Source: Patescibacteria group bacterium (GTDB taxonomy: Bacteria; Patescibacteriota; Patescibacteriia; JAXHNJ01). Taken from it: a stretch of DNA of 64,000 nt. This document shows, piece by piece, positions 6,071-61,947 of the stretch; position 1 is the first letter of the stretch, and each line of letters begins with the position of its first letter. Below the pieces are notes generated by a model. The model made no database searches and had not been told where the DNA came from. It was given only the letters and a program-made list of their open reading frames with translations. The stretch spans positions 8,407-72,406 of the forward strand of contig JBDRMK010000030.1 in the NCBI GenBank assembly GCA_043812155.1. The letters run 5' to 3'. A program made the translations under genes and the position numbers.

Positions 6071-6244
6071 AGAGAGTTCTTTAAAATATACTGGCAAATA
6101 GTAGTCATAGCCAAAAGGCACTCATTATCAATCAGATCCAAAATCGAGTTTAGGATATAACTGTCTGTGATGCGTGCTTTCTGGCTATGACTACCAAAGC
6201 GGCAGTCCTCTAGCGGTAACTCCTAAATGAAGGAGGATGACGAC

Positions 6245-6862
6245 ATGGGTAATACCATGACCACATCCGAAATGACCGATGGCCAGATTGAAAGGGCTAT
6301 CGAAATCTTCCGCGCAAAATTGCGGAAGCACAGAAACGAACTGCCGTCTGAGGCAGTTCAGATAGCGCTCGGCCAAGCGGAACTCGGTTCCGAGTGGCTC
6401 GCAGTTCTGCGCCAGCGCGTGGAAGCGATCAACGACAGCTATGAACTGCCGGTCGACTTCGACGACTCGCAGTGGAAGACGATTGACCGTAGCCGCTACG
6501 CATTCGTCGGCGACGTCACGATGGACGACTATCCTGTCACCGAGACAGGCATAAAGAAGGTTCGTTTTCGCGAGCTGGCCTTTGACCACAATCCGACAGA
6601 TCAGGAGGTTCTTGACCGGGCGGAGCAGCTCAACTGCCGCCAACTCAACCGGGCCGAAGCCGAGACCGTCATTCGGAAGAAGTATTCTCCCGAAGAGCTC
6701 GGACGTAATCCGAGAATCGTTCTGATCGGCCCTGCTGTGCGGCGCGACGGTGGGCTCCGCCGGGCGTGTGTCATTGGCCGCGGGGTTGGCGTGAGCCTGT
6801 CCTGGCTCTGGACCGAGTATCGCTGGTATCGGGACTGCCGGTTCGTGGTCGTCTGCAAGTAA
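6245..6862 (+). CDS. DGR variable (target) protein, 205 aa, C-terminal VR
   Basis: AGGAGG RBS 7 nt before ATG 6245; last ~44 codons are the VR; C-terminus ...WLWTEYRWYRDCRFVVVCK; no signal peptide; GC-rich relative to flanks. Confidence 0.8.
   Translation: MGNTMTTSEMTDGQIERAIEIFRAKLRKHRNELPSEAVQIALGQAELGSEWLAVLRQRVEAINDSYELPVDFDDSQWKTIDRSRYAFVGDVTMDDYPVTETGIKKVRFRELAFDHNPTDQEVLDRAEQLNCRQLNRAEAETVIRKKYSPEELGRNPRIVLIGPAVRRDGGLRRACVIGRGVGVSLSWLWTEYRWYRDCRFVVVCK
6727..6859 (+). repeat. DGR variable repeat (VR)
   Basis: 133-bp near-identical match to TR at 7302-7434; 19 mismatches all where TR has adenine, plus 2 non-A mismatches in last 10 bp (IMH-like). Confidence 0.85.
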
Positions 6863-6902
6863 GTGACCTTGGTCACTTGGATCTTTGGGACTTGGTAGTC
6901 CC
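6863..6902 (+). promoter_or_regulatory. Two small hairpins directly after VR/stop codon (possible DGR homing hairpin)
   Basis: GTGACC-TT-GGTCAC (6863-6876) and GGGACT-TGGT-AGTCCC (6887-6902). Confidence 0.35.
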
Positions 6903-6933
6903 TTTGATCCTTGGCCTGCGGTCATGTTATTAA

Positions 6934-6982
6934 AACTCCGTTTCACATTCCTTCGGGAGTGAGGGACGGAGTTTTTCTTTTT
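6934..6982 (+). terminator. Rho-independent terminator after DGR target gene
   Basis: AACTCCGT ... ACGGAGTT 8-bp stem (6934-6941 / 6966-6973) followed by TTTTTCTTTTT. Confidence 0.6.
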
Positions 6983-7301
6983 GGTAAAAAATGTTAAAAT
7001 ATTGTTGGATAGTAAACGACACAGTCCTTGGTTAGCCTTCGACCTGGCTCAGGCCAGGCGGCTAGGGACGGTTGAAATCTGGAGTATCGATCAGCTAGGA
7101 TGTCTGTTCGTTACGGCGATAGACAGTGTGCTTCGATACATCCCACATGAAGATACTTGGTACAGCGTATTAGCGGAGTCAATGCTCCCGAATACAATAC
7201 AACCCAGAGAGTAATTCATCCCTTGATAAGCTCGGGGATGACCCTGAGCGAAGTCCAAGGGTCAATGGGTGGTGGAATAGATGGTACGCTGTACATTGTG
7301 G

Positions 7302-7434
7302 CGGCCCTGCTGTGCGGCGCGACGGTAAGCTCAACCGGGCGTATGTCAATGGCAACGAGGATGGCGTGAACCTGAACTGGAACTGGACCGAGAATCGCTG
7401 GAATCGGAACTGCCGGTTCGTGGTCGCCTGCCAG
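7302..7434 (+). repeat. DGR template repeat (TR)
   Basis: Adenine-rich counterpart of VR (AAC/AAT codons where VR is variable); translated in the VR frame gives N-rich RRDGKLNRAYVNGNEDGVNLNWNWTENRWNRNC. Confidence 0.85.
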
Positions 7435-7449
7435 TCTCTTCTTGTCTTG

Positions 7450-7480
7450 CCCCTCCGGTTAGGCTGGAGGGGTTTTGTTT
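7450..7480 (+). terminator. Hairpin plus T-tract just after TR (overlaps 3' end of avd on opposite strand)
   Basis: CCCCTCC-GGTTAGGCT-GGAGGGG followed by TTTTGTTT. Confidence 0.4.
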
Positions 7481-7869
7481 ACCAGCTGTTTTCTCCAGCC
7501 GCCGAGCATTCTACCTGCTTCAACTAGCGGCTCTATTAACAGAGTGTACTTCTTGGTATCAATAACTTTTAATTCCCAGGCCAAGCGCAAAAAAAACTTT
7601 AAAGCGTCCAGCTTAACCGAAGCTCGGCTGATAATCGGTTGTTTTCCGTCTCGGGAGGCGTAGCCCGCCTCAAGGATTAATTCAAGAATATCGCAGAACA
7701 GGGCGTCTATCTTCTGCCCGAGGGTATAGCGGGAGAGCCGGGGAAGTTGCGGGAGTCCGGCGTGCCAAGTTTTATAAATATCAGCAAGTTTATGAAGAAT
7801 GGGAATATCGTCAAAAACCCGTCGGGGGGGGGGGGTGACATTAAAAGAGTTAAAACGCGGTTGAGGCAT
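7459..7869 (-). CDS. avd: DGR accessory variability determinant (Avd), four-helix-bundle protein
   Basis: Colinear similarity to Bordetella phage bAvd (LGQ..., LDALKFFLRLA vs LAMLRFWLRFLA, EAGRMLGGWRKQLVNK vs EVGRILGSWIARVNRK); lies between TR and RT but on the minus strand. Confidence 0.8.
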   Translation of the reverse strand: MPQPRFNSFNVTPPPRRVFDDIPILHKLADIYKTWHAGLPQLPRLSRYTLGQKIDALFCDILELILEAGYASRDGKQPIISRASVKLDALKFFLRLAWELKVIDTKKYTLLIEPLVEAGRMLGGWRKQLVNKTPPA

Positions 7870-8850
7870 AAATTTGAAGATATTATTTCGTTAGAAAATC
7901 TTTTTGGAGCTTGGCGTGAATTTTTGCCTGGAAAACAGAGTAAGCGCGACGTCCAGAAGTTTTCCCGCCATTTCGCTGATAATATTGTATCGCTTCACGA
8001 GGATTTCGTAAACATGACCTACCGGCACGGCGGGTACGAACATTTCAAAATTTCCGACCCGAAGCCAAGGGATATCCACAAGGCCACGGTGAGAGACCGC
8101 TTGGTTCATCACGCCATATACCGGGTATTATATCCATTCTTCAGCCGCACTTTTATCGCTGACTCTTATTCTTGCCAATTGGATAAGGGGACGCATCGCG
8201 CCACCAGACGTTTTAGACAATTTTCCGATAAAGCGAGCAAAAATAACACGAAAACCGTTTGGATCCTGAAATGCGATATCAAAAAGTTCTTTGCCAGCAT
8301 TGACCAGACAATTCTTTTAAAACAGCTTAAATTGTATATTCCAGATTTGCGGATCGTTAATCTCTTAGAAGAAGTAATAAGCAGTTTTTCTTGGCAACTT
8401 AACAAAGGTTTGCCGTTGGGCAATCTCACTTCGCAACTCTTTGTCAACATCTATATGACGCCGCTTGACCAGTTTATGAAGCATAAGCTTAAAGCCAAAT
8501 ATTATCTGCGCTACGCCGATGATTTCGTGATTGAGTCTCGCGACAAGAAATGGCTTGAATCTCTGATTCCGAAAATAAAAGGTTTTTTAATGAATAATCT
8601 TAAATTACAATTACATTCAAAAAAGGTAATTATTCAAAATCTGGCTTCGGGCGTTGATTTTCTGGGGTGGGTACACTTTCCTAACCATCGGGTTTTGCGA
8701 ACGACAACGAAACGCAGAATGTCGGCCAGAATAAAAGTTCATCCTACTAATGAGACGCTTCAATCGTATCTTGGTTTGCTTTCGCACGGAAATACTCACA
8801 AAATTAAAACCCAAATATTAAACGATTATTTTCTTTCGCGAGGCGAATAG
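7792..8850 (+). CDS. DGR reverse transcriptase
   Basis: RT motif 4 variant LPLGNLTSQLFVNIYM (DGR-specific [I/L]GxxxSQ instead of QGxxxSP), motif 5 YLRYADDFVI, N-terminal LENLFGAWREF; start uncertain (ATG 7792 or TTG 7861); 5' end overlaps avd start head-to-head; G12 tract at 7824-7835. Confidence 0.85.
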   Translation: MKNGNIVKNPSGGGGDIKRVKTRLRHKFEDIISLENLFGAWREFLPGKQSKRDVQKFSRHFADNIVSLHEDFVNMTYRHGGYEHFKISDPKPRDIHKATVRDRLVHHAIYRVLYPFFSRTFIADSYSCQLDKGTHRATRRFRQFSDKASKNNTKTVWILKCDIKKFFASIDQTILLKQLKLYIPDLRIVNLLEEVISSFSWQLNKGLPLGNLTSQLFVNIYMTPLDQFMKHKLKAKYYLRYADDFVIESRDKKWLESLIPKIKGFLMNNLKLQLHSKKVIIQNLASGVDFLGWVHFPNHRVLRTTTKRRMSARIKVHPTNETLQSYLGLLSHGNTHKIKTQILNDYFLSRGE

Positions 8851-9031
8851 GTAAATTTGACAGCTTAAAAATATTTAGCTAAGATAAATTCTCTGTTCAT
8901 TGCGAATGTATTTCCCCGGATCAGGCGCTGGCAACTCAGCCTCAACTGCTGGCCAGTACCCGTGCATAAACTCGCTAGCAGACTGCGTAATTGCTTAGCG
9001 CCTGGTCCCAATTTTTACAGAGGTGATTAAA

Positions 9032-9205
9032 ATGAAAAAAGAGAAAGAGCCACTGAAAGGCCGGGATTATGTAAAATTCCAGCGCTTACTTGCGAAAGCC
9101 GAAGCCGAAGGCCGGCTGGATGGCAAACATGTCTGTCCGGTTTGCGGCATGCGTTATCTTTGGGCCAGGGAAGCCGATGACTGTTGTCGGATAACTTCCG
9201 ATTAA
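9032..9205 (+). CDS. Small Cys-containing hypothetical protein (57 aa)
   Basis: AGGTGA RBS; CPVCG...CC motif; downstream hairpin plus T-run terminator at ~9222-9250. Confidence 0.35.
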   Translation: MKKEKEPLKGRDYVKFQRLLAKAEAEGRLDGKHVCPVCGMRYLWAREADDCCRITSD

Positions 9206-9402
9206 TCAACCGCACGTTTTTGAGGGCCTCTCGCCCTCTTTTTTTATACTAAAAATATAAGCGGCATTATTTATGGCCGGATGAGCTTATACTATTGACC
9301 CAGCCTTTCGCGAAAGGCTGGGTTGACATAATTCATAAACAGGTTATCTAATTAAGTCACGGATTAAGTAGCGTAAGCGTCAGCACCTTTATAAAGAAGG
9401 GA

Positions 9403-59898: not shown

Positions 59899-61947
<2,049 letters not shown>

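Follow-up and report, generated by a model that had tools for sequence, protein, structure and literature searches.

The stretch of DNA analysed here (the window), 64,000 nucleotides of contig JBDRMK010000030.1 from a Patescibacteria group bacterium, contains a complete diversity-generating retroelement (DGR) at positions 6227-8850. Its avd gene carries an uninterrupted run of twelve guanines (G12), twelve cytosines in the avd sense, close to the 5′ end. Judged from the comparison with related loci, where a simple sequence repeat (SSR) recurs at the same place, this repeat probably acts as a built-in on/off switch of the DGR. The cassette consists of the following parts, including the template repeat (TR), the variable repeat (VR) and the gene for the reverse transcriptase (RT):

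6227..6862, + strand: DGR target gene, 211 aa, with the VR inside; the VR runs to the stop codon
6727..6860, + strand: VR at the 3′ end of the target gene, 134 nt, 85% identity with the TR
7302..7435, + strand: TR, the sole partner of the VR in the window, with 27 adenines, 18 of them substituted in the VR
7449..7482, + strand: intrinsic-terminator-like hairpin, 11 pairs followed by TTTGTTT, 14 nt past the TR and overlapping the 3′ end of avd on the opposite strand
7869..7459, − strand: avd, 136 aa, ATG start, divergent from the RT gene; the Avd profile spans residues 23-128
7824..7835: the SSR, G12 (C12 in the avd sense), in avd codons 12-16 and directly upstream of helix 1
7839..7841, − strand: second ATG, in another frame and immediately upstream of the C-run; start, at G12, of a dead-end open reading frame (ORF) of 44 aa (7707..7841)
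7792 and 7799, + strand: two RT-strand ATGs upstream of the tract, in different frames; 7792 is in the RT frame at G12, 7799 at G10 or G13
7861..8850, + strand: DGR RT, 329 aa from TTG 7861; the open frame extends over 7747-8850

A preliminary description of this stretch had taken the minus-strand ORF for avd, and the coordinates it gave for avd, G12, the possible RT starts and their overlaps are all correct. The assignment to Avd is borne out by profile matches, with 49 bits for Pfam bAvd (PF22296; cut-off 40) and 76 bits for NCBIfam DivGenRetAVD, just below the cut-off of 80. Besides, the protein has 286 homologues and is identical to P0001, a "four helix bundle protein" at NCBI. The RT matches RVT_1 with 69.5 bits, has its nearest homologues among candidate phyla radiation (CPR) DGR RTs and contains LGNLTSQ, which fits the [ILV]GxxxSQ motif that is a mark of DGR RTs.

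The same description had regarded the position of avd, antisense between TR and RT, as an unusual DGR architecture, and this view has to be given up. A TR-(avd)-RT order in which avd lies on the reverse strand has been published as the B3 architecture, which, in the excerpted text of Wu et al. (2018, NAR 46:11, PMC5758913), makes up 90% of the CPR DGR set and is nearly absent elsewhere; order and orientation as given there are identical to those in the window. For a census we combined 80 loci from GTDB species representatives (RT alignment as query) with 80 metagenome loci (window RT as query), located Avd and RT with hidden Markov models, and counted a locus if avd was present and at least 450 nt of upstream sequence were available. 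Among the genome loci, avd was divergent and directly adjacent to the RT gene in 71 of 72, and among the metagenome loci in 61 of 61 (132/133 in total). With a target containing the VR, a TR, a reverse-strand avd and an RT, the DGR of the window has the B3 layout and is ordinary for its lineage.

The DGR of the Bordetella phage BPP-1 (mtd-avd-TR-brt) has several parts in common with this cassette, namely the xGxxxSQ motif in the RT, an Avd of the four-helix-bundle type and adenine-specific differences between TR and VR, and in both systems the GC-rich 3′ end of the VR is followed by a hairpin with a 4-nt loop. In contrast, avd of BPP-1 is co-directional and lies upstream of the TR, and a long spacer leads from the TR into the RT gene, whereas the TR of the window is followed by the terminator-like hairpin. 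To our knowledge, the avd gene of BPP-1 is without a repeat.

A repeat tract at the 5′ end of avd

G12 codes for part of T12, for P13-P15 and for part of R16 of Avd, and it is the sole G/C run of at least 8 nt in the 64 kb of the window. The second-longest run, a G7 at 60694-60700, lies within a 680-aa ORF (59905-61947). Using the Avd body as an anchor, we searched an 80-nt interval at the 5′ end of avd in 142 related loci (11.4 kb) for repeats, with G/C runs counted from a length of at least 7 nt. An SSR is present in 133 of these loci (~94%), and 126 of the repeats are poly-G (7-14 nt, mode 10), one is poly-C, five are dinucleotide repeats and one is a tetranucleotide repeat. The target interval holds 127 G/C runs of at least 7 nt, compared to 4 in 708 kb of flanking sequence, which amounts to a ~2000-fold enrichment. 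Lining the loci up over the 100 nt before the RT start also reveals a pure G-run in most of them; the flanks of the tract are weakly conserved (at most 0.7 bits per position), and the run itself is uninterrupted.

This recurrence bears directly on the possibility that G12 is a sequencing or assembly artefact, which the preliminary description had considered as a cause of a hidden RT start. Two-colour sequencing chemistry can yield poly-G, but 126 of 142 independent assemblies have the run at the corresponding position; they come from different assemblers and include the closed genome CP066687.1, and the run is internal to long contigs. The idea of an artefact that masks the RT start is thereby refuted. 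A chance homopolymer that codes for a required Pro-Pro-Pro would at first sight agree with the finding that PPP occurs in most Avd homologues. However, the "TPPP" motif is coded all-CCC although CCC accounts for only 22% of the Pro codons in related RT genes and in the long ORFs of the window, so that protein selection does not explain this coding. Moreover, other repeat types occupy the same spot: (GT)7-12 in L043, L101, L128 and L134, (GA)9 in L153, (CTGG)9 in L109, and in L105 a C8, a run on the opposite strand. The alternative repeats code for HTHTHT, LSLSLS or (ASQP)n in place of PPP, and in two-thirds of the loci the tract is out of frame anyway, as described below. Neither the PPP peptide nor a G-specific motif can therefore be the object of selection, and we attach next to no probability to an artefact or a chance homopolymer as the origin of G12. 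Our strongest argument for selection of the slippery repeat itself is this variety at one site, with unlike peptides and unlike nucleic-acid properties. What poly-G, (GT)n, (GA)n and (CTGG)n share is their proneness to replication slippage.

As a negative control we used IMG/VR loci with a related Avd, in which the repeat is present in 0 of 58 co-directional and 1 of 13 divergent loci, the latter being L178 (IMG/VR contig 3300042876_001093) with (GA)19 at the 5′ end of avd. Since only one of the 13 divergent loci carries it, the repeat is not a by-product of the head-to-head layout. A C8 run at the 5′ end of avd was also seen in L174, a viral-contig DGR outside the CPR chromosomal clade.

The position of the tract tracks the Avd body rather than the RT. 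Its distance to the Avd body has a standard deviation (SD) of 4.7 nt, whereas the distance to the RT start has an SD of 11.8 nt and ranges from -6 to 97 nt, with a median of 17 nt upstream. Given this range of spacing, we rejected the G-run as a Shine-Dalgarno element of the RT. In four loci (L010, L025, L043, L135) an A/T-rich insert of 110-130 nt, bounded by the inverted repeat CCCGTTAGAAA ... TTTCTAACGGG, lies between avd and RT; it could be a miniature inverted-repeat transposable element (MITE)-like element or a structured RNA. In all four the repeat is found towards avd, and in L010, L025 and L135 the tract remains beside the Avd body.

These distances also matter for a possible role of the tract as a cis-regulatory element of divergent, overlapping avd and RT promoters, either as a spacer or as supercoiling-sensitive non-B DNA, with the effect on the avd frame being secondary. 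Such a role would agree with the median location 17 nt upstream of the RT start, with a weak A/T-rich TTAAAAG-like consensus after the tract and with the capacity of poly-G, (GT)n and (GA)n for non-B DNA. It would also agree with the hairpin after the TR, as an equivalent hairpin with a T-run occurs in 102 of 134 related loci (76%) compared to 21 of 367 control windows; its stems vary among the loci (CTCCC...GGGAG and similar) and are followed by the tail TTTTGTTT. This terminator-like hairpin makes it probable that the TR RNA is transcribed as a discrete short unit and that the RT is transcribed from its own promoter within the avd 5′ region; as an alternative, the comparison suggests that the hairpin belongs to the functional DGR RNA. 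On the other hand, a promoter element is hard to reconcile with the loose distance to the RT start and with the tract staying beside the Avd body despite the inserts. Furthermore, there is no -35-like conservation upstream, and a sigma-70 promoter scan, whose score was not above shuffled expectation, placed neither the avd nor the RT promoter. The effects on the avd frame are real regardless. Overall, we judge a primarily cis-regulatory role to be improbable.

Reading frame, tract length and a proposed gating of Avd

In the window, G12 places the leader from ATG 7869 in the reading frame of the Avd body, and Avd at this locus is predicted to be ON. With G10 or G13, ATG 7841 would begin Avd as MSPPPRRVF..., which is the configuration of L001 (in-frame ATG 6 nt from the tract). 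As ATG 7869 serves G12 and ATG 7841 serves G10 and G13, only G11 and G14 would be OFF here.

Across the related loci, the frame over the repeat is indistinguishable from random. An upstream ATG, GTG or TTG shares the frame of the Avd body at 44 of the 129 distinct loci with a repeat (34%; p = 0.85 versus 1/3), compared to an in-frame canonical ATG in 8 of 9 loci without the repeat (Fisher p = 0.0014). The leader that starts at the canonical ATG is open as far as the repeat in 105 of 111 loci, against 19 and 14 loci for the two remaining frames, and 71 of these 105 open leaders are out of frame with the Avd body. The same holds for the part of the leader outside the RT overlap, which is open in 86 of 91 cases versus 69 and 20 for the other frames. 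We rejected a start of Avd downstream of the repeat, as an ATG is found there in 1 of 89 out-of-frame loci and GTG or TTG are no commoner in out-of-frame than in in-frame loci. Gene callers give a truncated Avd or no gene at the out-of-frame loci. A leader that is kept open though often out of frame, together with the lack of a downstream ATG, points to a phase-variable or slippage-dependent gene and not to a pseudogene or a mis-annotated start.

Tract length varies between close relatives. G12 of the window corresponds to G10 in L001, with flanks that are 94% identical, and G9 in L133 to G8 in L139, with flank identities of 98.9-99.2% depending on the flank length compared. At 85-95% flank identity, 9 of 11 pairs differ in length, and 17 of 25 do so at 75-85%. 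Within one sub-clade, L094 (G8) is in frame, and L015, L102 and L103 (all G9) as well as L113 (G10) are out of frame. By this comparison of sequences, the tract changes fast relative to substitutions. An exact-protein look-up with the neighbouring small proteins and Avd returned no same-strain contigs from other samples. Conservation, purity and enrichment of the repeat, as well as its length differences among relatives and the consequences for the frame, are demonstrated by these comparisons.

In the mechanism that we propose, the clade would keep an SSR in the 5′ part of avd, between the four-helix-bundle body and a short leader ORF whose ATG is usually antisense to the RT's conserved codon for His. 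With slipped-strand mispairing in replication, the tract would become longer or shorter, and each change could bring the leader into the frame of the Avd body or take it out of that frame. In the Bordetella phage DGR, Avd is needed together with the RT for cDNA synthesis. If Avd supports cDNA synthesis by the DGR RT in this clade as well, the tract would gate mutagenic retrohoming ON or OFF in a way that is stochastic, heritable and reversible. We consider it fairly probable that the tract is a hypermutable contingency locus that gates Avd and thereby mutagenic retrohoming; a useful switching rate in cells and the control of DGR activity are what we infer. Slipped-strand phase variation of Avd had already been suggested for the window, and the comparative evidence lends support to it as a clade-wide trait that is not peculiar to this locus. 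We see about an even chance that a selected contingency locus within avd is common to this entire clade of CPR DGRs and gives the cell a two-tier evolvability, in which the stochastic, heritable repeat switch would decide whether the targeted hypermutator runs: most populations would be OFF or low, and rare ON cells would diversify the target.

Several points weigh against a contingency locus. The tract lengths are those of the assembly consensus and not of reads, which counts against it with respect to within-population heterogeneity and reversibility. Pairs with 100% identical flanks have equal tract lengths in 5 of 5 cases, G10 is shared by the six assemblies compared for one Giovannonibacteria strain, the closed genome CP066687.1 among them, and two compared Jorgensenbacteria contigs that share one RT protein both have G9 and are out of frame. 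Over the sampled scales, the consensus state is therefore a stable one. The consensus is out of frame in two-thirds of the loci, species representatives included, so that Avd could instead come from RNA-level or ribosomal slippage. Among the ATG-led leaders, 63 need a +1 shift, 31 need a -1 shift and 25 are in frame, an excess of the +1 class which may be explained by relatedness among the loci. Finally, the requirement for Avd is established for the Bordetella phage DGR and is carried over by analogy to the CPR clade.

Most of these observations would also fit a decoding at the RNA or protein level, by polymerase slippage or by +1/-1 ribosomal slippage of tRNA-Pro on CCC-C, where this tRNA is prone to +1 shifts. 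Some in-frame Avd would then be made at any tract length, and the tract would be a constitutive low-dose setter whose length drifts neutrally. The random frame across the tract, an out-of-frame consensus that is stable over several assemblies of the same populations, the leader ORF that stays open in out-of-frame loci and the predominance of the +1 class are all in line with this. However, the seven loci with (GT)n, (GA)n, (CTGG)9 or an opposite-strand run carry substrates for DNA slippage that are poor ones for RNA polymerase or the ribosome, the length changes between close relatives are at the DNA level, and all three frame relations occur, which speaks against a fixed programmed shift. Overall, decoding by slippage, the main rival of a contingency locus, appears unlikely to us, though it is far from negligible.

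The start of the RT gene and the rest of the cassette

The usual junction of avd and RT is a 21-nt head-to-head overlap (for example 4001-4021 in L002, corresponding to 7849-7869 in the window), in which M-K-x-Q-L-x-H of the RT is antisense to M-x-Q-L-x-F-H of Avd. The avd ATG is the reverse complement of CAT, the conserved His codon of the RT, and the palindromic CAATTG gives Q-L on both strands. Of 142 loci, 101 have an RT ATG at the canonical site, which lies downstream of the repeat, 20 have only GTG or TTG nearby, as is so in the window, and 18 have no RT start between the repeat and the conserved N-terminus. The family-canonical ATG is replaced by GTT in the window (7849) and in its closest relative L001, and by ATT in L003.

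For the RT of the window, TTG 7861 and ATG 7792 are the possible starts. The former gives a 9-nt head-to-head overlap with avd and a protein of 329 aa, which fits the 325-340 aa of the homologues; these start with MKxQLxH, aligned with VKTRLRH in the window. From ATG 7792 the product would have 352 aa, overlap avd by 78 nt and read across G12 in frame. The gene calls P0122 and P0123 use an ATG equivalent to 7799. Starts at 7792 or 7799 would lengthen the RT at its N-terminus. As ATG 7792 and ATG 7799 are antisense by-products of the coding for the conserved DIPILHK of Avd, we give them no weight. The NCBI annotation P0121 begins at TTG 7924 (7924-8850, 308 aa) and omits the first 21 residues of the product from TTG 7861, a start apparently chosen to avoid the overlap with avd. 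The omitted residues include invariant columns of a 12-sequence RT alignment, and P0121 is therefore probably too short.

At the other end of the cassette, the 20 mismatches between VR and TR over 134 nt comprise 18 at TR adenines and two near the 3′ end. The last ~25 nt of the VR form a GC-rich stretch like an initiation of mutagenic homing (IMH) site and end in the two non-adenine differences, which is the pattern expected for IMH/IMH*. The GC content of the target gene and the TR is 0.53-0.64, compared to 0.34-0.47 in the surrounding genes (6200-6900 versus flanks). The 211-aa target protein matched no Pfam or NCBIfam family. Directly downstream of the VR, the following structures are found:

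6861..6975, + strand: three hairpins directly 3′ of the VR, DNA fold of -27.8 kcal/mol, z = -6.1
6861-6878, + strand: hairpin 1, 7-bp stem and 4-nt loop
6879-6910, + strand: hairpin 2, 4-nt loop
6932-6975, + strand: hairpin 3, terminator-like and followed by a T-run

These hairpins probably correspond to the target-site hairpin of the Bordetella phage DGR. For an IMH/IMH* pair a hairpin is expected downstream of the VR only; here, a hairpin of another kind lies 3′ of the TR as well. No Rfam family matched anywhere in the 64 kb window.

The DGR lies in a chromosomal setting, with genes for RecO, a DUF11 protein, Tgt and a ClpB-like ATPase as neighbours. Downstream of the RT gene there is a good sigma-70-like match, TTGACA-17-TAAGAT, at 8857-8885, followed at ~8919-9000 by an apparent long-range inverted repeat, judged by eye only. 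A Cys-rich ORF of 60 aa (9023-9205) precedes a terminator-like hairpin at 9222-9238, and the region 8857-9240 is without a family match.

Known contingency loci and implications for CPR bacteria

The avd tract resembles the SSR contingency loci of pathogens, such as the poly-G/poly-C loci of Campylobacter jejuni, Neisseria and Helicobacter and the tetranucleotide repeats of Haemophilus, in being an uninterrupted tract in the 5′ part of an ORF (7-14 G/C here). G12 in the 5′ coding region of avd exceeds the length of about 7 G/C from which such a tract counts as hypermutable. The likeness further includes strong over-representation against the genome background, length differences between close relatives with ON and OFF frames, and interchangeable repeat types at one site. 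Most known contingency genes, however, belong to host-associated pathogens and code for surface structures or for restriction-modification enzymes, whereas the CPR tract would gate the cofactor of a targeted hypermutation machine in environmental bacteria and lies in the region of overlap with the RT.

Repeat tracts can also act in promoters, as in the poly-C of Bordetella fim, in Neisseria porA and opc, and in the (TA)n between the divergent genes hifA and hifB of H. influenzae. As in these systems, the avd repeat lies between or within divergent genes, and a change of its length could affect both of them. It differs from them in lying inside a coding frame and tracking the Avd body, with no conserved -35/-10 arrangement.

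Of the features described here, the B3 architecture is already known. A term search of the excerpted text of Wu et al. (2018; PMC5758913) found no "homopolymer" and no relevant use of "overlap", and as far as this excerpt goes, the paper appears not to describe the avd repeat, the head-to-head overlap of the starts or the frame disruption. At the level of titles and abstracts, a coverage that excludes the main paper on CPR DGRs (Paul et al., 2017), we found no repeat tract linked to a DGR and no published description of the avd repeat, its frame consequences or the switch hypothesis.

Little is known of how DGRs are regulated, and hypermutation that runs unchecked in a functional protein comes at a cost. 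If our interpretation is true, the tract would be the first known switch of DGR activity that is encoded in cis and a rare documented case of phase variation in free-living or episymbiotic uncultured bacteria. The slippage tract in avd would offer a testable regulatory mechanism, bet-hedging between a diversifying and a locked state, in that part of the tree of life which is richest in DGRs. It would also explain why avd is frequently missing or truncated in CPR annotations, where a frameshifted avd would then not be a pseudogene. Besides, tract length would provide a simple read-out for predicting DGR activity in metagenomes, and for engineering the repeat suggests a natural toggle for DGR-based mutagenesis.

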